Notes: a model not told the origin generated them from the letters alone. Shown: positions 1-18,581, counted from the stretch's first letter. The stretch is 64,000 bases of DNA from Methanomassiliicoccales archaeon (GCA_013415695.1 JAAEEP010000006.1:21318-85317), one strand, 5' to 3'. Program-made: numbers and translations.

Positions 1-626
1 CCATAACCGTACTCCGTCGAGGTGGACGGATTCCAGACATCGAAACCTGTGGCTACAACCACCGCCCCGACATCGAACTCCAGCATGACATCGTTCATCT
101 CGTAGTCGATCGCTTCCCTCTTGCAGACCTTCTTGCAGACCCCGCACTTTCCTTCCTTGAGGTACCTGCAGTTCTCAGGGTCTATGATCGCCGCTCTGGG
201 AACAGCCTGCATGAAGGGCATATAGATGGCCCTCCTTGTCGACAAACCTTGCTCCCACTCATTGGGTATATTCTTCGTGGGGCACTTTTCCAAGCATTCT
301 CCACACCCCGTACATTTGTATTCATCAACGTATCTAGCCTTCTTCAGTACCCTGACATTGAATTTGCCCTTCTCACCTTCGAGGCCGACCAATTCAGAAC
401 AGGTCATCACGTTAATGTTGGGGTGTCCATAGCAATCAGCCATCTTCGGGGCGAGTATACAGATCGAGCAGTCATTGGTGGGGAAGGTCTTGTCCAGCTG
501 TGCCATTCGGCCACCTATGCTGGGCTCCTTTTCCACCAGGTGCACGATGACTCCCTTGTCCGCTAGGTCCAAGGAGGCCTGTATGCCCGCGATGCCGCCG
601 CCAATTACCAGCACCGTTTTTTCCAT
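1..626 (-). CDS. hdrA: HdrA-like FAD/Fe-S flavoprotein, 5' part only (gene continues beyond window start)
   Basis: Manual minus-strand translation from ATG 626-624 (GGAGG upstream) stays open to position 1. It reads MEKTVLVIGGGIAGIQASLDLADKG..MAQLDKTFPTNDCSICILAPK..CTGCGECLEKCP..CRYLKEGKCGVCKKVC. It is absent from the ORF track because there is no stop in the window. Paralogous to the N-halves of the two large hdrA genes. Confidence 0.9.
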   Translation of the reverse strand, partial: MEKTVLVIGGGIAGIQASLDLADKGVIVHLVEKEPSIGGRMAQLDKTFPTNDCSICILAPKMADCYGHPNINVMTCSELVGLEGEKGKFNVRVLKKARYVDEYKCTGCGECLEKCPTKNIPNEWEQGLSTRRAIYMPFMQAVPRAAIIDPENCRYLKEGKCGVCKKVCKREAIDYEMNDVMLEFDVGAVVVATGFDVWNPSTSTEYGY

Positions 627-693
627 TTTTCTTTCCTCCGTCCAGTAAAACCACAGTATTTTCTTTTGGAAAGTGGATTCTTTTCCACGTCAT

Positions 694-747
694 GGGTACC
701 TGGTGCCTGACCGCTTCAACGATCATTTGCACGCACTTAAGGTACCC
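694..747. repeat. 8-bp inverted repeat GGGTACCT/AGGTACCC (694-701 / 740-747) in the spacer between the Cys-repeat gene and hdrA
   Basis: Read directly from the sequence. The arms are perfect with a 38-nt spacer. It lies in the 137-nt gap inside an otherwise overlapping gene string. Confidence 0.5.
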
Positions 748-763
748 ATCCTGAAAATGGCTC

Positions 764-1135
764 CTACTCCCCTCCCTCGAAGATCCCTGAAAGATCTCCA
801 GATTTTTTCAATTCCACAGTCTTAACCTTGAATTTCTTCTTGTCCAGGACTTCCCTCTTGTATCTTTGACAATTGGGATAGGTGCATGGATCGCACTGCT
901 TCTCTGAACAAGCCAGTTCAACAAACATGTACCATTGTCGGTACCCATCCTTGCTTACAGGTGGACCCTCTACCTCAAACGCTTTGGTGGTCACTTTGGG
1001 CTTCTCTGTCAAACGAACGTAACGCTGACAGTCTGGATAAGTGCATGGGTTGCACTTGAAGTCCTTGCAGGAGAGTTCCACCATTAGATATCTCTTGTCC
1101 GGATTATCCATTTCTTCGGTCGCCGTCTCAATCAC
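764..1135 (-). CDS. Unrecognised small soluble protein with a tandem-duplicated C-x4-C-x2-C-x4-C-QRY motif (8 Cys)
   Basis: 123-aa ORF; start is GTG 1135 (1 nt after the hdrC/B fusion stop) or ATG 1111. The two repeats are LMVELSCKDFKCNPCTYPDCQRY and MFVELACSEKQCDPCTYPNCQRY. Same strand and tight spacing with the hdr genes. Confidence 0.6.
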   Translation of the reverse strand: MIETATEEMDNPDKRYLMVELSCKDFKCNPCTYPDCQRYVRLTEKPKVTTKAFEVEGPPVSKDGYRQWYMFVELACSEKQCDPCTYPNCQRYKREVLDKKKFKVKTVELKKSGDLSGIFEGGE

Positions 1136-1136
1136 C

Positions 1137-2282
1137 TCACTTCATATGTTCTGCCACGAAGTTGCTGAAATCCTTTACTTTAATATCAATCTTCTCTCTC
1201 TCAATGGGCATTTTTTCCATCGAAAGCAGACAGTTGTAATGTATCACGCACTTGGGACAAAAGGCCAACATCGTTTCCGCTCCTGTCTGCTTGGCCTCGA
1301 GCAGCCTCATCATCTGGAGCTGTCTTGAGGCTTCGTTGCAGTTGGTGAACGCATTGACCCCGCAGCACAAGGCTTTCTCCTGAGAGCTAGCCATCTCAAC
1401 AAACTCGACCCCCATGGCGTCGAGCAGATCCCTTGGCGTATCGTAGATGCCAGCGTGCCTCCCCAACCGACAGGAGTCGTGGTAGGTGACCGTTTCATCG
1501 GTCTCCTTGAACTCCAGCTTCCCCTCGTCTATCAGATTCATGAGGAACTCGGAGATATGCAGAATCTCAAAGTCCAAGTCTCCCAGGAACCCCTGATAGT
1601 CGATGTTGAAGGTTCTGAAACCTTCTGGGCATGAAAAGACCACTTTCTTTGCTCCGGTCTCCTTGATCATTTCCACGTTCTGCTCCATCAGGTCAATGAA
1701 GCCTACCTCATCCCCAGACCACAGCTGATCATGACCGCAACAGACCTCCTTATTGGACACTACCGGTTCGATTCCCGCGGCGTTCATTATCCTCACCACG
1801 TTCGCGGGGATCTCCTTCAGTTCGGGTGCCTTATCGTTGAAAAGGATACCGAGTTGGTAGGCGCAGCCCGTGAAGTAGTAGACATCGCCCTTATCACTCA
1901 CCTTTAGATCATCTGTGAGCCATGCGAGCCGGTTCTGCTTCTGTCCCATACCTGTGATCCTCTGCATGGTCTGGACCGCCCCTGCCTCCGAGCAAACGGG
2001 AACATTGCCCATTCCCACTGCCTCTACCCTCATCCTCTGGATGAAGCCGGAGAAATCCACCTCATAGGGGCACATGTCGTTGCAGATCTCACAGGTTATG
2101 CATGACCATATGTCCTTGTCACGCTTGATCTCCGATTCCAGACCCTCCTGGGCCTTGACCACTATCAATCTAGGGGCGAAATCGGAATTAATATTCGCTA
2201 CTGGACAAAGGCTGGTGCACTTACCGCACTCCACGCAGTCGAAGGCTCCAGTTTCTTCGATGAACTCCTCGATCTTGGTCAT
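1137..2282 (-). CDS. hdrD: HdrC/HdrB fusion (HdrD-like): N-terminal 2x[4Fe-4S] ferredoxin motifs plus two CCG domains
   Basis: 381 aa with CVECGKCTSLCP, CITCEICNDMCP, VCCGHD and ALCCGV (CCG motifs). ATG 2282 overlaps the mvhD stop (TAATG). Confidence 0.8.
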   Translation of the reverse strand: MTKIEEFIEETGAFDCVECGKCTSLCPVANINSDFAPRLIVVKAQEGLESEIKRDKDIWSCITCEICNDMCPYEVDFSGFIQRMRVEAVGMGNVPVCSEAGAVQTMQRITGMGQKQNRLAWLTDDLKVSDKGDVYYFTGCAYQLGILFNDKAPELKEIPANVVRIMNAAGIEPVVSNKEVCCGHDQLWSGDEVGFIDLMEQNVEMIKETGAKKVVFSCPEGFRTFNIDYQGFLGDLDFEILHISEFLMNLIDEGKLEFKETDETVTYHDSCRLGRHAGIYDTPRDLLDAMGVEFVEMASSQEKALCCGVNAFTNCNEASRQLQMMRLLEAKQTGAETMLAFCPKCVIHYNCLLSMEKMPIEREKIDIKVKDFSNFVAEHMK

Positions 2283-2698
2283 TAGATCACCTCCTTCAAG
2301 GGGCTTGGACCGAGTTCCTCCAACTCTTTGGTGAAATTATTCATGGTATCGGCGAATTTGGTACCTTCCCCCGCGGAAATCCACTCCAGCCTCAATCTCC
2401 TGCTGTCCACGCCAAGAACGTCAAGAAGCTCCTTGGTCATTTCAACTCTCACTTTTGCCTTCTCGTTGCCCGCGATGTAATGACAGTCACCTATGTGGCA
2501 CCCAGCCACCAGCACACCATCCGCCCCCAATTCAAAGGCTTTCAGAATGAACTGCGGTTCCAGTCTTCCACTGCACATCACCTTAATGATCCTAGCACTG
2601 GGAGGATACTGCAGTCTGCTGACCCCCGCAAGGTCCGCGCCGGCGTAGGAGCACCAATTGCAGCAGAAGGCCACGATCCTCGGTTCGAAGGCAGTCAA
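2282..2698 (-). CDS. mvhD: MvhD-like [2Fe-2S] subunit (methyl-viologen-reducing hydrogenase delta family)
   Basis: Reads TAFEPRIVAFCCNWCSYAGADLAG..MCSGR..GADGVLVAGCHIGDCHY. The probable TTG start at 2698 overlaps the hdrA stop (TTGA). The track ORF extension to 2806 lies inside hdrA and is rejected. Confidence 0.8.
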   Translation of the reverse strand: MTAFEPRIVAFCCNWCSYAGADLAGVSRLQYPPSARIIKVMCSGRLEPQFILKAFELGADGVLVAGCHIGDCHYIAGNEKAKVRVEMTKELLDVLGVDSRRLRLEWISAGEGTKFADTMNNFTKELEELGPSPLKEVI

Positions 2699-5600
2699 TA
2701 TCTCACCCCCTCTAGGCAGGACTCGACCATTGCAAGTATCTGCTCGTTGGTGAAATGTTTGCTGATGATAGCCCCGTTGCAGCATGTCACTGCACATGTA
2801 CCGCATCCTTTGCAGAGCGCGGGGTTGATGCTGGCCTTGAAAACTCCTGGCTCAACTTCCTGCACTGTGATGGCGGAGAACTCACAGACTGCCTCGCATC
2901 TAGCGCAGCCCCGACATTTCACCTCCTCCACATAGCTTATTGTGGCCTCACCCTCCACGGTGTCCTTGGATATCACCATTATTGATCTTGATGCGGCTCC
3001 CGCCGCCTGGGCGATGCTCTCGTCCGCGAGCTTAGGCCAATGGGCAAGGCCTGCAAGGAACACCCCCTCGGTGGCGAAGTCCACCGGCCTGAGCTTCATG
3101 TGAGCCTCCAGGAAAAAGCCATCCTTGCTAAGGGGAACTTTGAGCATCTTCGCCAATTCCTCGTTGTCGGGATTGGGCTTAATGCCTGTGGAGAGTACCA
3201 CCATATCCGGTTGTACCGACACCTTGTCCCCAAGAATCACATCCTGGGCGGAAATATCGATGATGCCTCCATCCACCGTCATGTCTGGCATGGTGTCGTC
3301 CGGCATCCTTATGAACTTCACGCCAAGCTCGCCTGCCTCCCTGTAGAGATCTTCCTTGAAGCCGTAGGTCCGGATGTCTTTGTAGAACATGTATACCTCG
3401 GCCTCAGGGTTGGCCTTCTTGATGCTGATCGCATTGTTCATGGCAGTCGAGCAGCAGATGCGGCTGCACATCGGATTATCCTTAGTGCGGGAGCCAACAC
3501 ACTGGATCATGACCACATTCTTGGCCTCGAGAGGTTTCTCGGCCATCATCTCTGCCAACTCCAGCTGTGTGACCACGCGGTCATCCTCACCGTAGAAGTA
3601 CTCGGTGGGCTGGTATTCCTGTGCTCCCGTGGTCAGTATTATCGTGCCTGCCTCAATCTCTTCCTCCGGAAGTGATATCCTAAAGTTGCCCACGAAACCC
3701 GAGATGTTCTCAATCTCAGCGTTCAGATGTACGGTAATCTTCTCGTTTCTAGAGATCTTAGCAATGAGCTCATCGGATACCTGCTTGCCGGTCTTTCCAT
3801 CCTTGTAAATGTGGACCCGCTTCAGATTGCCTCCAAGGCCATCCGATCTTTCGATGATGTCCACATCGAAGCCTTGGGCGGCGATCTCGAGGGCGGTAAT
3901 CATCCCAGAGAGGCCACCTCCAATGATGGCGGCTGAGTGATAGACTTCAAGTTTAGTCCTCTCCAAAGGTGAGATGAGCCTTGCCTTCGCCACCGCCATT
4001 CTCACAAGGTCCTTGGCTTTCTCCGTGGCTTTCTTTGGCTCGTGAGAGTGCACCCATGAGCATTGGTCGCGTATGTTGGCCATCTCGAAGAGATACGGGT
4101 TCAGGCCGGCTTCCCTGATGGTACTCTGGAATAGAGTCTCGTGAGTCCTCGGTGTGCATGATGCCACGATCACCCTGTTGAGGTTGTTCACATTGATCAT
4201 CCTCTTGATGATCTCCTGAGTATCCTGGGAGCAGGTGTACAGGTTCGCCTCGGCGTGAACGACATTTGGCAGGGTCTTTGCATACTCCACCACCTCCGGG
4301 ACGTTGATCACCCCGCCGATGTTGATGCCGCAGTGGCATACGAACACCCCTATTCTGGGCTCTTGAGTCCTTATGTCGACCTCATGAGGATACTCCTTTG
4401 GTTTGGCAAGTGTATTCCTCCTATCCGAAATGATTGCCGATGCCTTAACCGCTGCTCCCGAAGCCTCGGCCACCGTGGTCGGGATGTCCATGGGAGCAGC
4501 GAATGACCCGCTTACGAATATGCCCTCCTTGGATGTACTCAGCGGATCCCAAGCACCGGTTTCACAGAAGCCGTACTTGTTCAGCTCAATGCCGAAGACC
4601 TCCTGCAATTTCCCGGCGCTGTTCGAAGGGCAGAGACCTACCGAAAGGACTGCCATTTCGAACTCTTCCTCGTAAACATCGCCCCCTTCGCTGTACCTGA
4701 CGATAATGTTCTTGGTCTCAGGGTCTTCCTCGAGAGAGGCCACCCTAACTCCCCGGTGAATAATAACGCCACGTTCAAGCTCAGCGCGCTTGCGGTAGTC
4801 CTCGAACTCCTTTCCGACCGCTCTCACATCCATGAAGAAGATGTGCGGTTCCAGTCCCTTGGCGTGTTCCCCAGCGATGATGGCCTGCTTGAGCGCGTAC
4901 ATGCAGCAGACTGATGAGCAGTAGGTGTTTCCTACCTTCTCATCCCTGGACCCAACGCATTGCAAGAACGCTATCTTGGAGGGTATGTCACCATCTGAAG
5001 GTCTAAGCACATGCCCGAGATATGGGCCAGTGGCGCTGAGAATCCTTTCAAATTCTATGCTGCTCACCACATTCAGGTATTCTCCATAGCCATACTCCTT
5101 CTTCACCGAAGGCTCAAATTCCTCCGAACCAGGCGAAAGAATGATAGAACCCACCTCGACCGCTACGGACCTGTCCGCCAGCTCGAAATCGATGGCTCCG
5201 GTATTGCATGAGAGCTTGCAGGCACCGCACCCTATGCAGAGTTCGGGATCAATGCTGTATACCAGGGGAACCGCTTGAAGGTAAAGCACAGATATCGCTT
5301 TCCTCCTCATGAGCCCCTCGTTGAACTCATCTACGTACTCGACGGGACAGTTCTCTGCACAGGTTCCGCAGCCTATGCATTTCTCTGGGTTGACCTTGGG
5401 TACCCTCTGTTTGAGCGTCACCTTGAAATTTCCGGGCTCACCCTCGCATTTTTCAAGATCCGCATTGTTTATTATTGTGATGTTGTGATGCCTTCCCGCC
5501 TGCACGAGTTTTGGGGCGAGTATGCACATCGCGCAATCGTTGGTGGGGAAGGTCTTGTCCAGCTGGGCCATCACGCCCCCGATGCTTGGCTTCTTCTCCA

Positions 5601-5700
5601 CCAAGTAGACTCTGAAGCCTGAGTCGGCAAGATCCAGGGCTGACTGTATTCCAGAGATGCCGCCCCCGACGACCATTACTGCGCCGATCTTTTCGCCCAT
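2695..5700 (-). CDS. hdrA: Double-length HdrA-like flavoprotein (about 1001 aa)
   Basis: N-half: GGGISGIQSALDLA, LDKTFPTNDCAMCILAPK, CIGCGTCAENCP, CIGCGACKLSC, CVGSRD..YCSSVCCMYALK. Middle: VFVCHCGINIGG..ASCTPR..DQCSWVH. C-half: a second GGGLSG Rossmann motif, IQCVGSR..MCSRICC, and terminal CRGCARCEAVC plus CKGCGTCAVTC. ATG 5700 has SD GGAGGTG; the track start 5709 is GTG. Confidence 0.85.
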   Translation of the reverse strand: MGEKIGAVMVVGGGISGIQSALDLADSGFRVYLVEKKPSIGGVMAQLDKTFPTNDCAMCILAPKLVQAGRHHNITIINNADLEKCEGEPGNFKVTLKQRVPKVNPEKCIGCGTCAENCPVEYVDEFNEGLMRRKAISVLYLQAVPLVYSIDPELCIGCGACKLSCNTGAIDFELADRSVAVEVGSIILSPGSEEFEPSVKKEYGYGEYLNVVSSIEFERILSATGPYLGHVLRPSDGDIPSKIAFLQCVGSRDEKVGNTYCSSVCCMYALKQAIIAGEHAKGLEPHIFFMDVRAVGKEFEDYRKRAELERGVIIHRGVRVASLEEDPETKNIIVRYSEGGDVYEEEFEMAVLSVGLCPSNSAGKLQEVFGIELNKYGFCETGAWDPLSTSKEGIFVSGSFAAPMDIPTTVAEASGAAVKASAIISDRRNTLAKPKEYPHEVDIRTQEPRIGVFVCHCGINIGGVINVPEVVEYAKTLPNVVHAEANLYTCSQDTQEIIKRMINVNNLNRVIVASCTPRTHETLFQSTIREAGLNPYLFEMANIRDQCSWVHSHEPKKATEKAKDLVRMAVAKARLISPLERTKLEVYHSAAIIGGGLSGMITALEIAAQGFDVDIIERSDGLGGNLKRVHIYKDGKTGKQVSDELIAKISRNEKITVHLNAEIENISGFVGNFRISLPEEEIEAGTIILTTGAQEYQPTEYFYGEDDRVVTQLELAEMMAEKPLEAKNVVMIQCVGSRTKDNPMCSRICCSTAMNNAISIKKANPEAEVYMFYKDIRTYGFKEDLYREAGELGVKFIRMPDDTMPDMTVDGGIIDISAQDVILGDKVSVQPDMVVLSTGIKPNPDNEELAKMLKVPLSKDGFFLEAHMKLRPVDFATEGVFLAGLAHWPKLADESIAQAAGAASRSIMVISKDTVEGEATISYVEEVKCRGCARCEAVCEFSAITVQEVEPGVFKASINPALCKGCGTCAVTCCNGAIISKHFTNEQILAMVESCLEGVRY
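3488..3600. repeat. Near-identical block shared with 7265-7377 (hdrA paralogs)
   Basis: By manual alignment, 89 nt are perfectly identical (3488-3576 = 7265-7353), and 113 nt match with 2 mismatches. Flanking sequence is much more diverged. Confidence 0.85.
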
Positions 5701-5701
5701 C

Positions 5702-6475
5702 TCAGGCACCTCCCCTCAACAGAGCCTTGTATTTCGGTGTAGGGCCCTCAATGGAGTCCATGCCTATGAGATTCCTCGACCTCAGAACGACTACTTGCTT
5801 CAGTATTTCTTGAGGGGGAGCACCTATCTCTTCCGCCAATTCCTTTACTGAGAGGGGATTGGTCTTAGTCAATTGGAGGATAAGATTTCTTTCATAGTCC
5901 TCCTTTACCACCACTTCGGTCAGCTCATCCAGTTCATCAACGTTGATGAGGTCGCCGTAGACATTCCCTCTCTGAGTAAGATCCAATTCCTTGCCGCTGA
6001 GAAGCCTCAGCCTGTACTCTCGGGCAGTCCCAATAGCGGCGTCGAGCTTCACTTGAAGCTCCTCATTGTCCTTGACCGGGGATGGTCCAAGCTTCTTCAG
6101 GTACTTGACGAAATCGTCGACAACCTCGGCGAACCTCTCGCCTTCCGAGGCTGAGACAGGTTCTAACCTCAGCCTCCCTGGGTCAAGACCAACGAATTCC
6201 ATCAACTGCCATGCCATCTCCACCCTCTTCTGCGTGTATATGTGAGCGGAGAGATTGCAGCAGTCCTCGATGTGACAACCCCCGATCAACACCCCATCAG
6301 CTCCCTCGCTGAACACTTCGAGGATTATGTGAGCGGTAATCCTGGTGCTGCAAAGCACCCTGATAGAGCGTATATTGGTTGAATACTGGAAATGACTCAC
6401 GCCTGCCAGGTCAGCACCGGCATAGGCGCAGAAGTTGCATAGGAAACCAATGATCTTTGGTTCAAAGTTGCTCAC
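5702..6475 (-). CDS. mvhD: MvhD-like domain with a C-terminal extension of about 120 aa resembling a winged helix-turn-helix
   Basis: GTG 6475 overlaps the hdrA stop (GTGA). Reads SNFEPKIIGFLCNFCAYAGADLAG..GADGVLIGGCHIEDC, then ..NLILQLTKTNPLSVKELAEEIGAPPQEILKQVVVLRSRNLIGMDSIEG. The track extension to 6694 is rejected. Confidence 0.75.
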   Translation of the reverse strand: MSNFEPKIIGFLCNFCAYAGADLAGVSHFQYSTNIRSIRVLCSTRITAHIILEVFSEGADGVLIGGCHIEDCCNLSAHIYTQKRVEMAWQLMEFVGLDPGRLRLEPVSASEGERFAEVVDDFVKYLKKLGPSPVKDNEELQVKLDAAIGTAREYRLRLLSGKELDLTQRGNVYGDLINVDELDELTEVVVKEDYERNLILQLTKTNPLSVKELAEEIGAPPQEILKQVVVLRSRNLIGMDSIEGPTPKYKALLRGGA

Positions 6476-9400
6476 TCCATCACCTCCTTGAGGGCCACAC
6501 AGGCCTCGGCCAGGAGCTGAGAATCTGTGTAATGCATGAGGACGATTGCCCCCACTGGGCAGGCTGCTCCGCAGGAGCCGCACCCCTTGCATAGGGCAGG
6601 GTTCACAGACGCTTTCAGAGCACCTGTGGAGTCTTCTTTCATATCTACCGCACTGAAAGCACAGACCTCCTGGCAAATGCCGCAAGCCCTGCACTTCAAT
6701 TCATCGATCACTGGAACCGGGGCCATCCCCTCTAACTCGCTCTTCGCGATTATGGTCATGGCCTTCGAAGCAACGGCCGCGCCCTGGGCGATGCTCTCGT
6801 TGGCAAGCTTCGGCCAATGGGCAAGACCTGCCATGTAAATACCTTCAGTGGAAAATTCCACAGGTCTTAACTTCATATGAGCCTCCTGGAAGAAGCCATC
6901 TTTGCTAAGGTGAATCTTTAGCATCCTTGCCAGCTTGCTCGAATCTTCCCTGGGTCTAATACCAGTGGAAAGGACCAAGAGGTCCGCATTGACAACCACC
7001 TCATCTCCGAGAATGAAGTCATTGGCGCTGACCAATAATCTACCATCTTCCATCTTGACCTCAGGCATTTCGGCATCAGGCATCCTTATGAACTTCACAC
7101 CCAACTCGCAAGCTTCCCGATAGAGATCCTCCCTGAGGCCGTAGGTCCTTATGTCCTTACAGAAAACAAAGACATTTGAACCTGGGTTGCTCCTCATTAC
7201 ATTAATTGCATTGTTCATAGCTGTCGTGCAGCAGATACAGCTGCACATCGGATTGTCCTCGGTCCGGGAGCCAACACACTGGATCATGACCACATTCTTG
7301 GCCTCGAGAGGTTTCTCGGCCATCATCTCTGCCAACTCCAGCTGTGTGACCACACGGTCATCCTCGCCGTAGAAGTATTCCTGTGGTTGATACTCCTCAG
7401 CGCCTGTGGCCACAATGATGGCCCCAGCCTTTATCGGTCCACCATTGGTATTGAGCACGAAGTTGCCCACGAAACCCGCTACTTCCTCTATCTCTGTCTC
7501 AAGATGGACGGTCACCCTATCATTTGACATGACTCTGGAAATCATCTCATCCGCAGCTTCCCTTCCGGTTTTGCCGTCTTGCTTAAAAAGCACTCTATTC
7601 AAATGACCTCCAAGCCTGTCTGATCTCTCGATCAGATCGACCTCGTAGCCATTACTGGCGATCTCCAGGGCGGATGTCATTCCGGCGAGACCGCCTCCTA
7701 TGACCGTGACGGAATGGCCAATTGGGAATGTGGGTGTTGTCAAAGGCTCAACCAGTCTTACCTTGGCCACTGCCATCTTAACCAGATCATTTGCCTTAGC
7801 GGTGGCCTTTCTCTTCTCATTCATGTGAACCCACGAGCATTGATCGCGTATGTTTGCCATCTCCAGGAGATACTGGTTCAGGCCAGCTTCCCTGATGCAA
7901 TTCTGGAATAGCAGTTCGTGTGTCCTTGGAGAACACGAAGCGATCACTATCCTGTTCAATCTGTGTTCTTCGATCTTCTCCTTCATCAATTCAAGTGCGT
8001 CCTGTGAGCACGCATAAAGGAAGTCGGAAACGCTGATCACATCGGGCAGTTCCTTCGTGGCCTGTACAACCTTCTTCACATTGACCACACCACCGATGTT
8101 TCTACCACAGTGACATACGAATACCCCTATTCTGGGCTTCTCACCCTGCACATCCTTTTCTGAGGGGTAGTCCTTTCGAAGGATGGAGACTTTCTCCCGT
8201 TCGGTGACGGTCGAAAGCGCTTTAGAAGCTGTTCCAGACGCCTCAGCGACAGAGGCTGGTATGTCCTTTGGTGCTGAGAAGGTCCCACACACGTAGATAC
8301 CATCCCTGGAAGTGGATAAAGGATCCCAGACGCTTGTGGAGCAGAATCCGTCCTTGTTGAGCTCGACGCCGAAAACCTTGGAGATTTCCCCGGCCGATGT
8401 GGTAGGGCAGACACCCACTGACAGAACCACAAGATCGAAGGTCTCCTCGACCAGTCTTTCACCATCGCTGTAGTGAACAATAAGGTTCTCGTCGTCATCC
8501 TCATCAATGGAGGCGACTCGAGTCCCTCGATGGATCACAACTCCTTCTTCCTGCTCCGCCCGGATACGATAGTCCTCGAACTCCTTGCCAACCGTCCTTA
8601 CGTCCATGAAGAATATGTGCGGCTCCACCTTATTGAGGCGGTTCTTGGCGATCATGGCTGCCTTGAGTGCATGCATGCAACAGACAGATGAACAGTAGGT
8701 GTTTCCTACCTTATCATCTCTGGAACCCACACATTGGAGGAATGCAATTCTATTTGGCGCCTTCTTGTCAGATGGCCTTAGTAATTGGCCTTCATAGGGT
8801 CCAGCAGTGCTGAGGATCCTTTCAAATTCTCTGCTCGACACAACATTCTTGAAGAACTCATAGCCGTACTCCGTCTTCATTGAGGCATTGCATTCATCAA
8901 AACCAGGACAGAGTATCACTGAGTTGACTTCGAACTCGATCTCCTCGTCCTCCATATCAAAATTGATGGCGTCGTACTCACAGACCTTTGCGCATATTCC
9001 GCACTTCCCCTGTGTCAGATATAGACAGGTCTCTGGATCTATGACCGCGGTCTTCGGAACCGCTTGTGGAAATGGAATATATATCGCCTTTCTCGTAGAT
9101 AGTCCAAGTTCCCAGTAATCTAGGACTCCTTTCACAGGACACTTCTCAATGCAGTCCCCACGACCCATGCATTTTTCCTGATCGATGTATGTGGCCTTCC
9201 TGAGAACCTTCACCTTGAAGTCTCCCTTGTCGCCCTCAAGCCCAATCACCTTGGAATGGGTTAGAACATTGATGTTTGGATGGCCATAGCAGTCAACCAT
9301 TTTCGGAGCCAGTATGCATATCGAGTAATCATTAGTTGGGAAAGTCTTGTCCAATTGGGCCATCTTCCCACCAATGCTTGGATCTTCTTCTACCAGATAC

Positions 9401-9495
9401 ACTTTGACACCGACCTCGGCTAGGTCTAATGCCGCTTGAATTCCTGCTATTCCTCCACCAACAACAAGTACTGAGTTAGGCTCGTTGTCGGTCAA
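6472..9495 (-). CDS. hdrA: Double-length HdrA-like flavoprotein (about 1007 aa) with substitutions in conserved Cys motifs of the N-half
   Basis: Same architecture as 2695-5700. The probable TTG start at 9495 follows SD GGGAGGA and aligns with the paralog N-termini (LTDNEPNSVLVVGGGIAGIQ); the track start 9552 is also TTG. It carries TNDYSICIL and CMGRGDCIEKC instead of TNDC..C and CxGCGxCxxxC. Confidence 0.85.
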   Translation of the reverse strand: MTDNEPNSVLVVGGGIAGIQAALDLAEVGVKVYLVEEDPSIGGKMAQLDKTFPTNDYSICILAPKMVDCYGHPNINVLTHSKVIGLEGDKGDFKVKVLRKATYIDQEKCMGRGDCIEKCPVKGVLDYWELGLSTRKAIYIPFPQAVPKTAVIDPETCLYLTQGKCGICAKVCEYDAINFDMEDEEIEFEVNSVILCPGFDECNASMKTEYGYEFFKNVVSSREFERILSTAGPYEGQLLRPSDKKAPNRIAFLQCVGSRDDKVGNTYCSSVCCMHALKAAMIAKNRLNKVEPHIFFMDVRTVGKEFEDYRIRAEQEEGVVIHRGTRVASIDEDDDENLIVHYSDGERLVEETFDLVVLSVGVCPTTSAGEISKVFGVELNKDGFCSTSVWDPLSTSRDGIYVCGTFSAPKDIPASVAEASGTASKALSTVTEREKVSILRKDYPSEKDVQGEKPRIGVFVCHCGRNIGGVVNVKKVVQATKELPDVISVSDFLYACSQDALELMKEKIEEHRLNRIVIASCSPRTHELLFQNCIREAGLNQYLLEMANIRDQCSWVHMNEKRKATAKANDLVKMAVAKVRLVEPLTTPTFPIGHSVTVIGGGLAGMTSALEIASNGYEVDLIERSDRLGGHLNRVLFKQDGKTGREAADEMISRVMSNDRVTVHLETEIEEVAGFVGNFVLNTNGGPIKAGAIIVATGAEEYQPQEYFYGEDDRVVTQLELAEMMAEKPLEAKNVVMIQCVGSRTEDNPMCSCICCTTAMNNAINVMRSNPGSNVFVFCKDIRTYGLREDLYREACELGVKFIRMPDAEMPEVKMEDGRLLVSANDFILGDEVVVNADLLVLSTGIRPREDSSKLARMLKIHLSKDGFFQEAHMKLRPVEFSTEGIYMAGLAHWPKLANESIAQGAAVASKAMTIIAKSELEGMAPVPVIDELKCRACGICQEVCAFSAVDMKEDSTGALKASVNPALCKGCGSCGAACPVGAIVLMHYTDSQLLAEACVALKEVME
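7265..7377. repeat. Partner of the 3488-3600 near-identical block
   Basis: See 3488-3600. Confidence 0.85.
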
Positions 9496-9633
9496 GCTCT
9501 TCCTCCCTTTTCTGCAATCTAGGTCCTCCCTGATTTCGTCCCAATAGCCCAATTGTGAGGGTCATGATGTTGAATCTCGCCCTCCCGTCTCAGATGGATG
9601 ATGCTTCGTAAGAAGGCAAAATCCATCCGATAA

Positions 9634-9657: not shown

Positions 9658-10253
9658 TCCCAAAAAAGAACGAAGCTTCGTAGACATGTTGAAAGGAGCG
9701 ACCTCCGGCTAGAGCGTGTGTCGTTTTCCCAACACGAGCCAGAGTTGAGTTTTCTCGTGGTCTCCATTCTCATTCCTCGACTCTTCGACTGGTCCTTGGA
9801 AGCTTGCCCAAAGGTCGAATTCCTCAGAAGGAATACGATTATGTCAGCAGTTCCGTCCAATTCCCATCACACCATAACCATCCTTACGATAAGCGGCAAT
9901 GTTGGAACCGTGGGGCTTCCGTTGACATCTTCAAATTCCCGACTGGATATTAACCCAAAAGGGGATTCGATTTTCATAGGTGAAGCGTAACTCGGCTATT
10001 TGATATTTACTCCGAACTAGTTTCAGATTTTCATCCCGTATATTTTATTTCTCGTTTTCAAGCAACGAATATTTTCTATTAATTACACAATTGTTATGAT
10101 ATTCGTAATCATAAAGATAAAAATCAAGAAATCAAAGATTCGAATCAAGAATAAAACATAGGTGATGATTGATGATGTTTCTTGCTTTTTTCGAAATCAT
10201 TTGCCCTTGACCTCGGATCTGATTTCTTGAAATGCGTATCAATCATATGTAAT

Positions 10254-11006
10254 ATGAAAAACGTAGAAAGAGATTTAATTCAAATAACCCTGCCGTTCCC
10301 TGTGATCATTCTCCTGGTTACCGCAACGGTTCTCGGGGCAATGGCCGCTGTGACGATCATCAGTCTAAGGAGTTACATGAATTCCAAGGAAGGATGCGAC
10401 CAGGGGTCAATGGTCCCAAAACTCGACGGTATCACAAAGATCATTTGGAGGGGCAGGATCAGTAATCAAAGGCCAAGGGTGTTGGTAAACGGGCCCGAGG
10501 TGAAATCCCAAGTCTGCCAGATCTGTCTGGGAAGGATCAAAGAGGGTTCAAACCATCTGGAGTGTAATTGCGGCAGAACTTTTCACATCATCTGCCTCTC
10601 GCGCACGGGCTTCTGCCCTTATTGTCATGAACCCTATGAGAACCTGATACCTCAAACGGGAAACATTCAATCATTTCTGACATGCCCCCTATGTGGCATC
10701 AATCTAGAACCAGGATCAAGAAGATGTGAATGTGGTGCAATATTCCAGGAGGAAGGAGTTGACTTCTGCTGCCCCATCTGCGGGACCCATATCTCCGAGG
10801 AAAACACAGTCTGTCCCTATTGCGGGGAGATATTCGATTGCTATCGTCTCATCAATTGCCCTGTCTGCGGACTTATGATCGATGAGGATACAGAGGTCTG
10901 CGATTGCGGGGCGGTCCTTATTGATCGCTGCCCTGGGTGTGATGCCCCCCTGGGAGCGGAGGATAGGTACTGCATAAGTTGTGGCGCAGAATTCGAGTTC
11001 ATTTGA
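10254..11006 (+). CDS. Single-pass membrane protein with a C4HC3 cross-brace-like finger followed by four zinc ribbons
   Basis: ATG 10254 (the track start 10182 lies in AT-rich DNA). TM segment ITLPFPVIILLVTATVLGAMAAVTIISL. Finger CQICLGRIKEGSNHLECNCGRTFHIICLSRTGFCPYC, then CPLCG..CECG, CPICG..CPYCG, CPVCG..CDCG and CPGC..CISCG. Confidence 0.7.
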   Translation: MKNVERDLIQITLPFPVIILLVTATVLGAMAAVTIISLRSYMNSKEGCDQGSMVPKLDGITKIIWRGRISNQRPRVLVNGPEVKSQVCQICLGRIKEGSNHLECNCGRTFHIICLSRTGFCPYCHEPYENLIPQTGNIQSFLTCPLCGINLEPGSRRCECGAIFQEEGVDFCCPICGTHISEENTVCPYCGEIFDCYRLINCPVCGLMIDEDTEVCDCGAVLIDRCPGCDAPLGAEDRYCISCGAEFEFI

Positions 11007-11100
11007 ATACCCTTCCTGAGCATTGTGGCGAAGAGAATGGATTTAAGTATTTCCAACCGTATTCGCCAACCCGAATTCTAAACATCTGGGATGGGAAATC

Positions 11101-12180
11101 ATGAAATCCATCATTGACAGGGCATTGGAGGCTCACGAGGAATCTGTGGACGAAGAGGGAATTGAGCAACCTGGCCTTCCTATGGAGTCAGACGAAGAGC
11201 TAAGGAAGCTGGTAGAGTCTCTTCAGGTGAGCATAACAATCATGGGTTGCGGAGGTGGCGGTTCAAACACCATCCGCAGGATCAACGAAGCGGGAATAAT
11301 AGGCGCCACGCTAGTAGCTGCAAACAGTGATGCCAAGCACCTACTTTCCATTCAGGCACCGAACAAGATACTTCTAGGCAGGACGATCACAAGAGGGCTT
11401 GGAGCAGGGGCGCAGCCGGACGTAGGTAGAAGAGCCACTGACGAGGCCAGAACTGACATCATGAGATTCATCCAGAACCAGGACATCGTGTTCATCACCG
11501 CGGGAATGGGCGGCGGTACGGGAACTGGCTCCGCTCCCTACGTTGCAGAGCTTTCCAAACGAACCAGCAGGCTTGTGATGGGTATTGTCACTCTCCCTTT
11601 CAGGGCTGAGGGGAAACTAAGAAGGGAAAATGCCCTCAGAGGTCTGGACCTCATGAAAGAATTCTGCGATACCACCATTGTTGTGGAGAACGACAAGTTG
11701 TTGGAACTGGTGCCGAAGCTCCCAATCGAAGCCGCTTTCAGGGTAGCTGATGAGGTTTTAATGCAGTCCATCAAGGGCATAACCGAGATCATCACCAAGC
11801 CCGCACTGGTCAATGTCGACTTCAACGACATGATGACCATCATGGAGAACGGCGGCGTGGCAATGATAGGTATCGGTGAATCAGATTCCAGCAATGGAAG
11901 GGTGGAGGAAGCGGTGTCAGAGGCCATGTCTTCACCACTCCTGGGTGACATCGATGTGAAATCAGCGAAAGGCGCGTTGATCCGTGTTGTTGGTGGACCT
12001 GATATGACCGTTTCCGAGGCGGAGAAGGCTGCCAGGCTCATAGGAGATCAGATCAACCCGATGTCAAGGATCATCTGGGGATGCGCTGTGGAGCCAGAGG
12101 TTGAGGGCACTATCAAGGTGCTGGTGGTCATCACAGGCGTAAAGTCACCCCAGTTCATAGAAAAAGGTACTATCCTTTAA
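11101..12180 (+). CDS. ftsZ: Cell division GTPase FtsZ
   Basis: GCGGGGSNTIRRI, tubulin signature GMGGGTGTGSAP, and T7-loop NVDFNDMMTIM. Confidence 0.9.
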   Translation: MKSIIDRALEAHEESVDEEGIEQPGLPMESDEELRKLVESLQVSITIMGCGGGGSNTIRRINEAGIIGATLVAANSDAKHLLSIQAPNKILLGRTITRGLGAGAQPDVGRRATDEARTDIMRFIQNQDIVFITAGMGGGTGTGSAPYVAELSKRTSRLVMGIVTLPFRAEGKLRRENALRGLDLMKEFCDTTIVVENDKLLELVPKLPIEAAFRVADEVLMQSIKGITEIITKPALVNVDFNDMMTIMENGGVAMIGIGESDSSNGRVEEAVSEAMSSPLLGDIDVKSAKGALIRVVGGPDMTVSEAEKAARLIGDQINPMSRIIWGCAVEPEVEGTIKVLVVITGVKSPQFIEKGTIL

Positions 12181-12752: not shown

Positions 12753-14495
12753 ATGGCACAAAGCAAGGAAGGGACGATAGCGATCTATATTTGCTCTGAA
12801 CAGGACAAAATGTGTGATTTCATTGATCTTGAAAGCATCAGGGATATGCTCCTCCGTGAGAAGGACGTGGTCGATGTTCTCATACATCACCAACTCTGTG
12901 CCGTGGATGAGATCATCAAGATCGTGGAGAGATATCGAGAGCACAAGCCTGAGAGAGTCCTGTTGGGTTGCTGCCAGACCGCAACAAGTGAACGATTAAG
13001 GGAGTCATTGATAGAAGCTGGCCTGAACAAGTACCTCTATGAGAGGGTGAACCTCAAGGAGCTTGTCATGCTAGTCCATATAGACAGGGAGAGGTCGACT
13101 AGAAGGGCAAAATCCCTGCTGCTGAGCGGTTTGGCCCGCTTGCGGCGGGCCAAGCCGTTGGATGATATTGTCATGCCCATACGGGACAGCGTCCTCATCA
13201 TTGGAGGCGGCATAGCCGGAATGGCATCCGCGAAGGCCATTGCTGACGAGGGTTTCAAGGTCTATCTGGTGGAGAAGGAAAAACGACTTGGAGGGAGAGC
13301 GTATCAACTATCTACCACCTTCCCAACCCATGAATGCGGAATATGCTGCATGAGGTACTGCAAGGAGTGTGTTCTTACTCCAAAGATACCAGAAATCGCA
13401 ACACATCCTAATATCGAGGTTATGCTGAATAGTAATGTCACGCATATATCTGGGCGCTTTGGAGAGAGGCATATCGAGGTTGAATCGAATGGTGACATGC
13501 AAGAATTCGATGTTGGGATCATCATAGTGGCGACTGGCTCCAAAACCTTCGACCCCATTTCACTCCCAGAGTACAATTACGATAGGTTGGAGAATGTGGT
13601 GACCTCCATGGAGTTCTGCGACATCATGGCCAAAGCAAGCACCGCAGATTTCAGAAGGCCTTCCGACAACAAGATTCCCAAGGTTGTGAACTTCGTACTC
13701 TGCGTAGGATCCCGCGACTGCCATCGAGCCAACAACTACTGCTCCATAGTATGCTGCACATACGCGATCGGTTCGGCCAAGGAGTTTAAATTGGCCCACC
13801 CGGAGACAGAAGTCTACATACACTTCATCGATCTCAGAGGCCCATACAGGGGGTTCGAAACACTTCTTCTCGAGGCCAGGGAAGCAGGCGTGATATTCAT
13901 CAGGGGACGTGTGGCAGAGATAATCGATGATGACGGCGAGATACTGCTCAGGGTGGAGGATGCAGACGCTGGAGAGCTCTTGAACATCCATAGCGATCTC
14001 GTGATCCTCGCCGTGGGTCAGGAGCCAAGCGTTGGTTCGGAGGAGCTGGGGAAGATGCTCCGACTGCAGGTTGACATTGACGGATTCTTGAAGGACTTCA
14101 ACCCGATGTATCCTGAGGAGATTAGGAAGGGGATCTATGTGGTGGGTTGTGCCCAGGGTCCCAAGGGAATAAGATACTCCATCGACGACGCTAAGAGGAC
14201 AGCATTCGAAGTCATTAACCTCCTGAACAAGGGTGAGATATCAATTGATAATCTTGTCGCTGAGGTCAATGAGCATACCTGCCGTGGGTGCGGTCGATGC
14301 GTGGAGAACTGTCCCTTCGAAGCCGTTGAGCTGGTGGAAAAGGGTGACGAGAAGATCGCCCAAGTCGATGAAATGGTCTGCGAAGGATGTGGTATCTGCT
14401 CGGTGGTCTGCTGCAACAAATCGATAACCATGAGACATTATACGAGAGACAGCCTGCTTTCCCAGGTTCGCTCGGTGATCAAGGAGGTCAGCTAA
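12753..14495 (+). CDS. hdrA: Short HdrA-like flavoprotein (580 aa) with a degenerate CHCG-type N-domain and an extra Cys insertion
   Basis: The N-domain-like segment has YICSEQ instead of VCHCG. Then IIGGGIAGMASAKAIADEG, LSTTFPTHECGICCMRYCKECVLTPK, CVGSRD..YCSIVCCTYA, and C-terminal CRGCGRCVENCP plus CEGCGICSVVC. SD GGAGG lies 9 nt upstream of the ATG. Confidence 0.8.
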   Translation: MAQSKEGTIAIYICSEQDKMCDFIDLESIRDMLLREKDVVDVLIHHQLCAVDEIIKIVERYREHKPERVLLGCCQTATSERLRESLIEAGLNKYLYERVNLKELVMLVHIDRERSTRRAKSLLLSGLARLRRAKPLDDIVMPIRDSVLIIGGGIAGMASAKAIADEGFKVYLVEKEKRLGGRAYQLSTTFPTHECGICCMRYCKECVLTPKIPEIATHPNIEVMLNSNVTHISGRFGERHIEVESNGDMQEFDVGIIIVATGSKTFDPISLPEYNYDRLENVVTSMEFCDIMAKASTADFRRPSDNKIPKVVNFVLCVGSRDCHRANNYCSIVCCTYAIGSAKEFKLAHPETEVYIHFIDLRGPYRGFETLLLEAREAGVIFIRGRVAEIIDDDGEILLRVEDADAGELLNIHSDLVILAVGQEPSVGSEELGKMLRLQVDIDGFLKDFNPMYPEEIRKGIYVVGCAQGPKGIRYSIDDAKRTAFEVINLLNKGEISIDNLVAEVNEHTCRGCGRCVENCPFEAVELVEKGDEKIAQVDEMVCEGCGICSVVCCNKSITMRHYTRDSLLSQVRSVIKEVS

Positions 14496-16108
14496 TGGAG
14501 GGGGAGGCTTTCGATCCGGTCGTGGTCACATTCGCCTGCAACTGGTGCGGTTATCCCGCAGCGAGATTGACCGGAGTTCAGAACATCGATTATCCATCGG
14601 GAATCAAGATCGTTCGGGTGATGTGTACTGGGAGGGTCGATCCGGCCATGATAATGAAGGCCTTCGAGTACGGCGCGGACGGTGTGGCCCTCGTCGGTTG
14701 CCGCATGGACGAGTGCCACTTCCTTGAGGGAAACAAGAAGGCCAAAGAGAGAGTGGAAGCGATAAAGAAGATCCTCGATTACATCGGTCTTGATGGGGGT
14801 CGTCTGGAAGCTGAGTGGTTGGCCGCAGCCGAGACAAAGAAATTCGCAAAGCTCACTAACGACCTCGTCTCGAAGATAAAGGAACTCGGTCCAAACCCCA
14901 TTCCGCGAATCGGTGAGATGGGTGAGGAGGAGGCTGTCTTCGACAAGGACGCGATCGATGATATTATCTCGAGCACCAGCGCCCACGACTGCGTGGAGTG
15001 CGGTAAGTGCACTAGCGTATGCCCGGTGGCCAGGTTCGATGAGGAGTTCGCTCCCAGGAGAATAGTGCTTCGAGCCCTTGAGGGAGTGTCCGACAAACTT
15101 GCCGAAGACAAGGACATATGGTCCTGCATCACCTGCGAGATGTGCAATGCTATGTGCCCCTACGAGGTCGATTACTCCGAGTTCATCAGGAGAATGAGAT
15201 CGGAGGCCGTGCTGTTAGGGGGAAGGCATGATTCGATAATCAAGGAATGCCCCCAAGGTGGGATGCTGCAGAGCATGATGAGGATCATGGCATATACCGA
15301 GAAGCAGAATAGGCTCTCCTGGATACCTGAGGATGTGAGGATCCAGACAACGGGAGATGTCTTCTACTTCACAGGTTGTCTTCCCCACATGGACTTGGTG
15401 TTCAGAGACCGGGAATTGGACCTTACCCAGACCGCAGTGAGCGCTATCAAGCTTCTGAACCACGCTGGTATCGAGCCCGTGGTGAGCAACAACGAGGTCT
15501 GCTGTGGTCACGATCTCAATTGGGTAGGTGATGAGGATAGTTTCGAGCTGCTGATGAACAAGAACATCGAGGCCATTAAGGAGAGTGGGGCAAAGACGGT
15601 GGTCTTCACCTGCCCCGAGGGACTTAGAACCTTCGATATTGATTACAGGGACATACTTGGGGATCTGGATTTCGAAGTGATGCACATCTCGGAGTTCCTT
15701 CTGGAGCTTGCGGATGAAGGCGATATCGACCTCTCCTCGGACAACAGTGGAACAGTGACCCTTCACGAGTCCTGTAGGCTGGGCAGGCATCTGGGCATCT
15801 ACGATCCGCCGCGAGAGCTACTGGAAAGAGCGGGGATCGAGATCAAGGAAATGGAGAACGTAAGGGACAAGGCCATCTGTTGTGGTGTCAGCTCTTTCGT
15901 GGCATGCAGCGAATCGGCTCAAAAAATGCAGCTCGAGAGAATAATGGAGGCCAAGAGGACTGAAGCAGAGACCCTTCTGACAGTCTGCCCCAAGTGCAGG
16001 ATACACCTGAGCTGCGCGATCTCAAAGGAGATCCCTTGTGACCGCGAGTTGGTGGACATTCCTATCGAGGATTATACTGTGTACCTTGCTAGGCACTTGA
16101 ACCTATGA
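14495..16108 (+). CDS. MvhD-HdrC-HdrB triple fusion (537 aa)
   Basis: ATG 14495 overlaps the upstream stop (TAATG) and follows AAGGAGG. MvhD part: VVVTFACNWCGYPAARLTG..GCRMDECHF. HdrC part: CVECGKCTSVCP and CITCEMCNAMCP. HdrB CCG part: VCCGHD and AICCGV. The track extension from 14387 is rejected. Confidence 0.85.
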   Translation: MEGEAFDPVVVTFACNWCGYPAARLTGVQNIDYPSGIKIVRVMCTGRVDPAMIMKAFEYGADGVALVGCRMDECHFLEGNKKAKERVEAIKKILDYIGLDGGRLEAEWLAAAETKKFAKLTNDLVSKIKELGPNPIPRIGEMGEEEAVFDKDAIDDIISSTSAHDCVECGKCTSVCPVARFDEEFAPRRIVLRALEGVSDKLAEDKDIWSCITCEMCNAMCPYEVDYSEFIRRMRSEAVLLGGRHDSIIKECPQGGMLQSMMRIMAYTEKQNRLSWIPEDVRIQTTGDVFYFTGCLPHMDLVFRDRELDLTQTAVSAIKLLNHAGIEPVVSNNEVCCGHDLNWVGDEDSFELLMNKNIEAIKESGAKTVVFTCPEGLRTFDIDYRDILGDLDFEVMHISEFLLELADEGDIDLSSDNSGTVTLHESCRLGRHLGIYDPPRELLERAGIEIKEMENVRDKAICCGVSSFVACSESAQKMQLERIMEAKRTEAETLLTVCPKCRIHLSCAISKEIPCDRELVDIPIEDYTVYLARHLNL

Positions 16109-16410: not shown

Positions 16411-17133
16411 ATGCAGCCAGGACAGATGGCATACGACAGGGCCATAACCGTCTTCTCACCTGATGGAAGGTTGTTCCAGGTTGAATACGCTAGAGAGGCG
16501 GTGAAGAGGGGTACCACGACTGTCGGCCTCAAATTCAAGGACGGCGTGGTCCTGATCGTAGACAAGAGAATTGCCAGTCGCCTTATGGAACCTAAATCCA
16601 TTGAGAAGATATTCCGCATCGATGAGCATATTGGATGCGCCACTTCAGGATTGGTGGCCGATGCAAGGATCCTCGTAGACCAGGCCAGGGTGATCGCCCA
16701 AATAAGCAAGATCACCTATGACGAAAAGATGGGAGTGGAGGCCTTGGTAAAAAGGATCTGTGATTTCAAGCAGAACTACACGCAGTACGGTGGAGTTCGT
16801 CCTTTTGGCACGGCACTATTAGTGGCCGGAGTGGATGAACAAGGCGAGCACCTTTTCGAGACCGATCCAAGCGGCGCCCTCGTATCATACAAGGCAGGGA
16901 GCATTGGTGCTGGCCGAAACTCGGTCATGGAGGTCTTCGAGGAGGACTATCAGGAGAACATAGAGATGGAAGAGGCCATACTTCTCGGTCTAAAGGCTCT
17001 TCTGAAGGCGACCGATGAGGACAAGCTCAACCCTAAGGCGGTAGAGATCGGCATCGTGAGGAGAGACGAGAACTTCAGGCAGCTTGAGGAGTCTGAGGTA
17101 GAGTCCTACATCTCGAAGCTCGGCTCAGAATAA
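16411..17133 (+). CDS. psmA: Proteasome alpha subunit
   Basis: [27 protein letters not shown]. Confidence 0.95.
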
Positions 17134-17140
17134 GGTGAAA

Positions 17141-17836: not shown

Positions 17837-17866
17837 TCGCGACCAATGTTAAAATGAGGTTTACTC

Positions 17867-18568: not shown

Positions 18569-18581
18569 TTTGGTGATTTAA

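Follow-up and report, generated by a model that had tools for sequence, protein, structure and literature searches.

A tandem Cys4 gene in an archaeal hdr cluster

We analyzed a 64,000-nucleotide (nt) stretch of DNA from a Methanomassiliicoccales archaeon (GCA_013415695.1 JAAEEP010000006.1:21318-85317), hereafter the window, in which a small gene for a cysteine-rich protein lies among genes for heterodisulfide reductase (Hdr)-like proteins. The small gene occupies 764..1135 on the (-) strand and encodes 123 amino acids (aa) from a GTG start (MIETATEEMDNPDKRYLMVELSCKDFKCNPCTYPDCQRYVRL...YMFVELACSEKQCDPCTYPNCQRYKRE...), a product identical to NYT11729.1, which is deposited as ‘hypothetical protein GKC03_04160’ of a Methanomassiliicoccales archaeon metagenome-assembled genome (MAG). 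A preliminary description, made from the sequence alone, had placed a 123-aa open reading frame (ORF) here without stating its strand. It had described the protein as an internal duplication with eight cysteines in two identical spacings, each followed by QRY, and no hydrophobic segment, starting 1 nt past the stop of an hdrC/B fusion gene. All of these features were recovered. Both of the peptides quoted for the duplication, LMVELSCKDFKCNPCTYPDCQRYVRL and MFVELACSEKQCDPCTYPNCQRYKRE, are present, and local alignment of the two halves over 42 residues scored 116, compared to 23.5 ± 4.4 (maximum 41) in 1000 shuffles, so that the duplication is far above chance. The protein has exactly eight Cys in two C-x4-C-x2-C-x4-C blocks. 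It is very hydrophilic and free of hydrophobic segments (grand average of hydropathy (GRAVY) -0.83; K+R 22, D+E 21), with a near-neutral isoelectric point (pI) of 7.4. The stop codon of the upstream gene (TGA, 1139-1137) is separated from the GTG at 1135 by a single nucleotide.

The two repeats share the consensus ELxC-x4-C-xPCTYPxCQR[YF]. Repeat 1 (residues 16-56; 968..1090 (-)) was delimited by self-alignment, motif scan and invariant columns and has its Cys4 core at nt 1028-1069, while repeat 2 (residues 69-110; 806..931 (-)) has its core at nt 869-910 and includes the segment with a weak RsxB/RnfB-type match, residues 77-100. A motif scan of the window found no open-frame C-x4-C-x2-C-x4-C block other than these two. 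The start codon is uncertain, as an in-frame ATG at 1111 would give 115 aa in place of the 123 aa from the GTG at 1135, and proteins of 115, 123 and 125 aa share the same sequence cluster; either choice leaves both repeats intact.

A word-indexed search of 5.8 billion proteins returned 77 relatives, about 52 of them with two repeats (119-165 aa) and about 25 with a single repeat (70-87 aa), and a unit-level profile search gave 93 homologs. None of the 77 relatives bears a Pfam domain or any name besides ‘hypothetical’. All eight Cys are invariant in about 100 homologs, as are the neighboring E, P, P, T, Y, Q and R. At the level of the repeat, all four Cys with the surrounding E, P, T, Y, P, Q and R were kept in 159 units from 103 proteins, and the only one of these 103 to lack the motif is an evidently corrupted sequence. 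Homologs of 40-93% identity, representing about 100 clusters and more than 50 genomes, retain the motif, contrary to the possibility raised in the preliminary description that no homologs would conserve the Cys pattern. Against a 93% identical orthologue (L012), the ratio of nonsynonymous to synonymous substitution rates (dN/dS) was 0.07 at a dS of 0.38, which indicates strong purifying selection; dS was saturated for more distant pairs. The small size of the protein, its uncertain start codon and its annotation as ‘hypothetical’ only would suit a chance ORF or a decaying remnant, but that explanation is effectively refuted by the dN/dS value and by the persistence of the motif, and we conclude that the gene is genuine and conserved.

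An exhaustive hidden Markov model search of 1.84 billion 50%-identity representatives yielded only 28 clusters, all of 151 aa or less and none fused to another domain, and no hit of the unit-level search exceeded 102 aa. The family thus offers no informative domain fusion. A scan of one genome per GTDB species gave 73 loci, all in Thermoplasmatota MAGs except for one contig. This exception (L068, DATEYD010000314.1) is a 3.5-kb contig binned as ‘Candidatus Paceibacterota’, which carries an archaeal arrangement of pyrK, a single-repeat member and an HMGL gene and is near-identical to the Thermoplasmatota locus L062; its assignment is probably a binning error. The motif string occurs in no paper, and papers on these lineages name generic hdr and mvh genes only; the family is not described in any paper or database entry.

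The preliminary description had also placed the small gene inside an hdr operon, and this was borne out by the neighboring genes and by comparison with homologous loci. Immediately upstream is the gene of an HdrD-like subunit (1137..2282 (-)), an HdrC/B fusion with a Fer4_8 dicluster domain and two CCG domains by Pfam and NCBIfam. It is preceded by a MvhD/FlpD-type subunit gene (2282..2806 (-)), which in many relatives is fused to the HdrD-like gene, and by the gene of a double-length HdrA of 1004 aa (2695..5709 (-)) that matches the NCBIfam HdrA2 model in three stretches, the best of them to model positions 141-562. Downstream lies the 5’ part of a short HdrA gene (1..626 (-)), truncated by the window edge; its product begins at 626 with MEKTVLVIGGGIAG... 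and enters the FAD-binding motif VLVIGGGIAG at once. We called ORFs in all fetched loci and classed them by BLAST against reference Hdr parts, and the database gene calls agreed. About 50 loci from different genomes have one order: fused HdrA (~1005 aa), MvhD and HdrD (separate or fused), the small Cys protein, short HdrA (~430 aa), long HdrA (~620 aa), long MvhD (~257 aa), fused HdrA and MvhD. In these loci the short HdrA is the invariable downstream neighbor of the small gene. The gap between HdrD and the small gene is mostly -35 to +28 nt, and that between the small gene and short HdrA mostly 100-220 nt. The position of the HdrD-like stop 1 nt before the start of the small gene suggests translational coupling, and the fixed order with its tight HdrD junction is what would be expected of a subunit gene. 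At one locus (L013) the MvhD and HdrD genes are missing and the small gene still precedes short HdrA.

The short HdrA corresponds to HdrA2 model positions 139-563, and so comprises the FAD core but neither the N-terminal domain nor the C-terminal ferredoxin; the long HdrA is a complete HdrA that lacks MvhD. The 1004-aa HdrA of the window is the two fused, an N-domain-less core joined to a full HdrA. Both in the window (2695-9552 (-)) and in homologous loci, a double-length HdrA stands beside the same pair as two genes (~430 + 620 aa), and each form is followed by its own MvhD, of which the one at 5702-6694 has a weak C-terminal helix-turn-helix match. We considered that the small protein might be the split N-terminal domain of the short HdrA and rejected this, as the motif of that domain (VFVCHCG...) bears no relation to the small protein and is likewise missing from the fused HdrA. 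A second Hdr module in the window (12753..16108 (+)) pairs an HdrA-like flavoprotein of 580 aa with an MvhD-HdrD fusion of 573 aa downstream. In the two HdrD-like proteins that the window encodes (1137-2282 (-) and 14387-16108 (+)) the first CCG domain ends in C-P-E-G, not C-x-x-C, leaving it one Cys short of the canonical five-Cys non-cubane cluster motif, and the HdrDs of related lineages (L001, L003, L004) retain the CxxC. The idea that the small protein supplies this missing ligand was rejected, because CPEG occurs in both window HdrDs irrespective of the small gene and HdrDs of other lineages that have the small gene have CxxC.

The 137-nt spacer between the small gene and short HdrA (627..763 (-)) holds a long hairpin built on a GGGTACC/GGTACCC inverted repeat, with a minimum free energy of -43.8 kcal/mol (z -3.7). 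The hairpin was not conserved in 45 homologous spacers (median z -0.8), and a conserved RNA element was therefore rejected: the hairpin is confined to this genome and has no Rfam match. No tRNA, Rfam RNA or notable tandem repeat was found within the 64-kb window. Genes for a double-zinc-ribbon protein, FtsZ, proteasome alpha, SBDS and exosome Rrp4/Rrp41 (10182-12180 (+) and 16411-19340 (+)) are housekeeping genes of archaea and confirm that the window is archaeal chromosome.

Single-repeat paralogs outside the hdr cluster

Besides the two-repeat gene, many of these genomes, at least 17 when counted by isolate name, encode a ‘mini’ form of the protein, 46-50 aa with a single repeat of the form ...IE[TS]SC-x4/5-C-xPCTYPNCQR...K.FGK. 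In at least 22 Thermoplasmata genomes (loci L062-L084; for example L064 6483-10147 and L063 6405-10144) the mini gene is the last of a co-directional block, nifS - nifU_N (iscU) - pyrD - pyrK - mini, which is faced by a convergent HMGL-family gene. The minis of this block were mostly unannotated or buried in longer spurious ORFs. Elsewhere, a 49-aa member is flanked by an iscU-type gene on one side and an HdrC-like dicluster gene on the other (L088 5488-7110), the latter followed by an ORF of unknown family that is truncated at the contig end, and at L085-L087 a single-repeat member lies upstream of a ThiI/THUMP gene. The MAG of the window itself has a 55-aa single-repeat paralog (NYT12703.1, GKC03_09210; L090 7001-9912, GCA_013415715.1), located downstream of a PAS histidine kinase gene and 258 nt upstream of a tusA - dsrE2 - nifS - nifU operon, whose nifU encodes NifU_N + FeS_assembly_P. 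One further mini (P0099) stands in an unrelated context. The recurrence of the protein beside Fe-S (iron-sulfur) and flavin proteins and beside genes for Fe-S and sulfur mobilization suggests a general small module of these archaea. A modifying enzyme was adjacent in none of the contexts, and a ribosomally synthesized and post-translationally modified peptide or a cofactor precursor was accordingly rejected. The preliminary description had pictured the protein as serving an Hdr-like complex. The two-repeat form is embedded in the Hdr cluster, but the family is not Hdr-specific, given single-repeat paralogs next to nifS, iscU, tusA and pyrK and one two-repeat copy elsewhere.

Resemblances of the Cys4 motif

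Sequence and profile searches of Pfam, NCBIfam and the PDB with the window protein reached no family at threshold. Its best matches were noise, together with one to the RsxB (RnfB) model at E=0.45, in which residues 77-100 align to model positions 45-68. We scanned all 77 members singly against Pfam and NCBIfam and counted the weak matches. Pfam PF04060 (‘Putative Fe-S cluster’, FeS) matched 32 of the 77 at E<1 (best E 3.2e-4); the best member scored 20.7 bits, short of the cutoff of 23, with profile positions 6-27 lying on Cys2 to the segment past Cys4. The top recurrent NCBIfam families were all RnfB-type (NF005506 in 41/77, RsxB in 25/77 and rnfB/RnfB in 3/77).

In CdhE/AcsC, a [4Fe-4S] cluster is held by the motif CX2CX4CX16CP, which also occurs in RnfB (PMC4023990). 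Solved RnfB chains (8ahx_B, 9eri_B, 7zc6_B) and large subunits of CFeSP (4djd_C, 9fzy_F) carry C-G-x-C-G-[FYLT]-[PA]-[GT]-C with a C-P 16 residues on. We aligned the repeat units as a profile with six RnfB/CFeSP domains, and Cys2, Cys3 and Cys4 fell on this triad with a score of 19.7 (hhalign P 0.001), compared to 8.9 ± 2.1 (maximum 17.4) in 300 column-shuffled controls, none of which reached 19.7. The triad of PF04060, C-x2-C-x4-C with an aromatic-Pro pair inside the x4, is present in the repeats as C-[DNS]-P-C-T-Y-P-[ND]-C aligned to the solved chains. The distal Cys-Pro about 16 residues past the triad is absent, with no Cys after Cys4 in any repeat, and in its place there is an invariant Cys1 4-5 residues upstream. 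Since both the score and the position of the fourth ligand fail, the family does not belong to PF04060. The resemblance to RnfB/CFeSP is local and sub-threshold, but it is better than chance and functionally suggestive.

No member matched Fer4, the bacterial-type 2x[4Fe-4S] ferredoxin, even at E<=1, and its CxxCxxCxxxCP spacing differs. The CCG domain (PF02754; C-x31-39-CC-x35-36-CxxC), which the neighboring HdrD-like protein has, gave no match to the family, in which there is no CC pair. Fer2 (PF00111; C-x4-C-x2-C-x~29-C) shares the first three spacings, but the fourth Cys of the repeat is at +4, and two of the 77 members matched at E 0.45. Rubredoxins and zinc ribbons, with two CxxC at least 10 residues apart, were absent from the matches, and all four Cys of a repeat lie within 14-15 residues. 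The C6HC pattern of IBR/RING was not found either, the member P0015 scoring 18.1 bits against a cutoff of 24.3 and having no His ligand, and no member matched DsrC, the C-termini being Cys-free K/E-rich tails. The preliminary description had considered the spacing to differ from those of ferredoxins, the HdrB CCG motif and simple CxxC zinc knuckles and the protein to be unassignable, and had proposed sensitive profile searches. These brought no described Fe-S or zinc family to threshold, but Cys2-Cys4 do resemble the PF04060 domain of RnfB/CFeSP above chance.

Possible function and comparison with known systems

The explanation that we favor, tentatively and at somewhat less than an even chance, is that each repeat is an Fe-S cluster site and that the protein is an accessory electron-transfer subunit of an Hdr-like complex. 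We favor it because the Cys are invariant, the synteny is fixed and RnfB-type models top the weak matches in two independent libraries, and also because the single-repeat paralogs adjoin genes for Fe-S proteins and for Fe-S cluster assembly. Each repeat, about 45 residues long, would be a self-contained four-Cys metal site, preferably for a [4Fe-4S] cluster or else for a [2Fe-2S] cluster bound by two C-x4-C chelates. Cys2-Cys3-Cys4 would make up a C-x2-C-x-Y-P-x-C loop resembling the one in the ‘FeS’ domain of RnfB/CFeSP, and Cys1, 4-5 residues upstream, would take over the role of the distal fourth Cys. Four closely spaced Cys can hold a cubane, as in endonuclease III, where a [4Fe-4S] cluster is bound by C-x6-C-x2-C-x5-C. 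The two-site protein would be co-translated with the HdrD-like subunit and serve as a small, flexible, peripheral Fe-S subunit of the flavin-based electron-bifurcating Hdr-like complex of Thermoplasmata, relaying electrons at the HdrD/split-HdrA module. We infer from sequence the identity of the metal, the physical association with Hdr, and the role and direction of electron transfer; the gene itself, its invariant motif, its fixed synteny and its above-chance similarity to RnfB-type motifs are observed directly. The preliminary description had likewise suggested a metal- or cluster-binding subunit, electron-transfer adaptor or assembly factor. That suggestion is plausible as a hypothesis, although structure prediction did not yield a confident fold.

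Several results weigh against an Fe-S subunit. AlphaFold2 gave the whole protein (77-sequence alignment) a mean predicted local distance difference test (pLDDT) score of 40.6 and a single repeat (55-unit alignment) 66.7. The low-confidence repeat model has a helix at residues 3-17 that includes Cys1, then a loop bearing Cys2-Cys4 and, directly past Cys4, a second helix, and a Foldseek search with this model against the PDB returned 0 matches. The Foldseek comparison proposed in the preliminary description thus matched no known fold, although it was run on a low-confidence model and no confident structure was obtained. On these models the protein probably has no autonomous fold and would be organized by a cofactor, a partner or both. 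The match statistics are modest as well: no match of any member reached a curated threshold, the window protein itself has no PF04060 match, and the RnfB/CFeSP alignment has an hhalign probability of 22% over 21 columns. Zinc families were equally frequent among the weak matches (IBR in 34/77, best E 0.0024; Zn_Tnp_IS91 in 33/77, best E 0.0019), and the sole PDB profile match, non-significant at E 0.28, was to a C2H2 zinc knuckle look-alike (CTWPGC.KRF). Family members are strongly basic, with a median pI of 9.4 and, for those with two repeats, a median net charge of +12.5, whereas classical ferredoxins are acidic. Genomic context adds to these points. The MAG CSMAG_404 has a two-repeat copy far from hdr genes (L046 9923-10456), among genes for arginine decarboxylase, a nuclease, RibD_C and SUKH-family proteins, in addition to a standard hdr-linked copy (L048). 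No Cys4 gene stands beside the second HdrA + MvhD-HdrD pair of the window (12753..16108) or beside other split-HdrA pairs (L004, L061), so that the small gene is linked to one particular module of the supercluster and not to every HdrD or HdrA.

The basic character of the family keeps alive the explanation that the repeats bind zinc, which we regard as unlikely. Each Cys4 block would be a zinc-knuckle pair, and the protein would either hold Hdr subunits together as a clamp or act as a small nucleic-acid-binding regulator, with no redox function. A hydrophilic family (GRAVY about -0.97) with a pI of about 9.4 would suit such a protein, as would the recurrent weak IBR and Zn_Tnp_IS91 matches, the likeness of the C-TYP-x-C-QRF segment to the C-x4-C knuckle of Sp1/KLF (the PDB match above), and the varied contexts of the small paralogs, one of which adjoins a ribosomal protein gene. 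However, the matches to zinc families are about tenfold weaker than that to the FeS domain, RnfB-type models dominate the NCBIfam matches, and the consistent neighbors are Fe-S and flavin redox proteins, not nucleic-acid machinery. The window copy is near neutral, and the cluster already encodes helix-turn-helix proteins. It is also unlikely, in our view, that the protein is a carrier of Fe-S clusters or sulfur, or an assembly factor, bringing a transient cluster or persulfide from NifS/IscU to the Hdr complex or PyrK. The single-repeat paralogs speak for this, being found beside nifS/iscU/tusA/dsrE in three independent arrangements and beside ThiI/THUMP in one, as does the predicted absence of a stable fold, which suits a cargo-organized protein, and the exceptional Fe-S load encoded by the Hdr cluster (dozens of clusters, including the non-cubane ones of HdrD). 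But the nifS-iscU-pyrDK-mini order may be the inherited synteny of one clade and hence a single event, and the coupling to the HdrD stop and the fixed place in a structural operon resemble a stoichiometric subunit. Known carriers (A-type, Nfu) are folded and have other motifs, and no such family was matched.

An improbable further alternative is that the protein works like DsrC, its Cys cycling between dithiol and disulfide (or persulfide) as an acceptor reduced by the CCG domains of HdrD-like proteins. The gene directly follows that of a CCG-domain catalytic subunit, and a paralog adjoins tusA-dsrE2. The orders UBA10834 and RBG-16, relatives of the hosts, are reported to lack methanogenesis yet to retain hdrABCD, the substrate being given as ‘an unknown heterodisulphide’ (bioRxiv 10.1101/2020.03.09.984617). 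One of the hosts is the UBA10834 isolate itself (L044). Cys2-x-P-Cys3 also shares the C-x-P-C spacing of the thioredoxin CGPC motif. On the other hand, four tightly packed Cys in each unit, invariant along with Pro, Tyr, Gln and Arg, resemble a metal site and not a redox pair, the family gave no DsrC or thioredoxin signal, the small gene of L013 remains with split HdrA though MvhD and HdrD are missing there, and paralogs occur with no disulfide reductase nearby. We hold out little expectation that the protein is the physiological thiol/disulfide or persulfide partner of the HdrD-like subunit in Thermoplasmata without the heterodisulfide of coenzymes M and B (CoM-S-S-CoB). If it were, it would be a redox protein of a wholly new type and would explain the substrate of ‘heterodisulfide reductase’ in non-methanogenic archaea.

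Hdr-type electron-bifurcating complexes are central to anaerobic energy conservation, and non-methanogenic Thermoplasmata are abundant in soils, wetlands and sediments. A conserved Cys4 protein locked in giant hdr clusters offers a concrete candidate for an electron-transfer or assembly component that has been missing in these archaea, and the paralogs beside nifS/iscU suggest that the family has a broader role in archaeal Fe-S metabolism, specific to this lineage. Should the Fe-S explanation be right and a 14-residue block hold a cluster, the repeat would be among the most compact natural Fe-S binding units and a relative of the RnfB/CFeSP domain in permuted, stand-alone form. A family model is merited at the least for the more than 100 ‘hypothetical proteins’ that are now ignored in metabolic reconstructions. 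On present evidence the finding is not paradigm-breaking, but it adds a concrete, testable piece that had been missing from the Hdr superclusters found in uncultured Thermoplasmata.

Among known systems, the protein is best filed, as far as its motif can tell, as a stand-alone, tandem, ligand-permuted Cys4 Fe-S/metal module nearest the FeS domain of RnfB/CFeSP. Both have a C-x2-C-x-aromatic-P-x-C loop followed by a helix, which is predicted with low confidence here and assumed for the FeS domain. In its known hosts (RnfB, AcsC/CdhE and some [FeFe]-hydrogenases) the FeS domain is a small electron-entry module. The fourth Cys sets the two apart, being the Cys-Pro at +16 in the FeS domain and a Cys 4-5 residues upstream here, and the Cys4 module is stand-alone, tandem and basic, with no fusion to a ferredoxin, corrinoid or membrane domain in any member. 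The [2Fe-2S] connectors MvhD/FlpD are a functional analogy, being small Cys-rich proteins of hdr operons that are thought to relay electrons to HdrA, but they lack sequence similarity to the small protein, MvhD folds as a domain of about 130 aa, and the operon already has several MvhD genes. DsrC, the substrate of the HdrD-like DsrK, is likewise a small Cys protein genetically tied to a CCG-domain subunit, but it has two Cys on the C-terminal arm of a folded domain, compared to eight Cys in two compact blocks here. The zinc knuckles of C2H2 (Sp1/KLF) and IBR proteins share a C-x4-C followed by basic and aromatic residues as well as the weak matches, but these are non-significant and the Cys4 motif lacks His ligands and the full C6HC pattern of IBR. 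The loop of endonuclease III/MutY is similar in placing four close Cys around one [4Fe-4S] cluster in a basic environment, but it is embedded in the large fold of a DNA glycosylase, and no homology to the repeats was detected. The CIAPIN1 region of Anamorsin/Dre2 is eukaryotic, differs in its Cys spacings and gave no profile match. It is nonetheless a hydrophilic, poorly ordered region with two compact Cys4 motifs, each with an Fe-S cluster, in an electron carrier tied to Fe-S biogenesis, a link that parallels the nifS/iscU neighborhood of the single-repeat paralogs.

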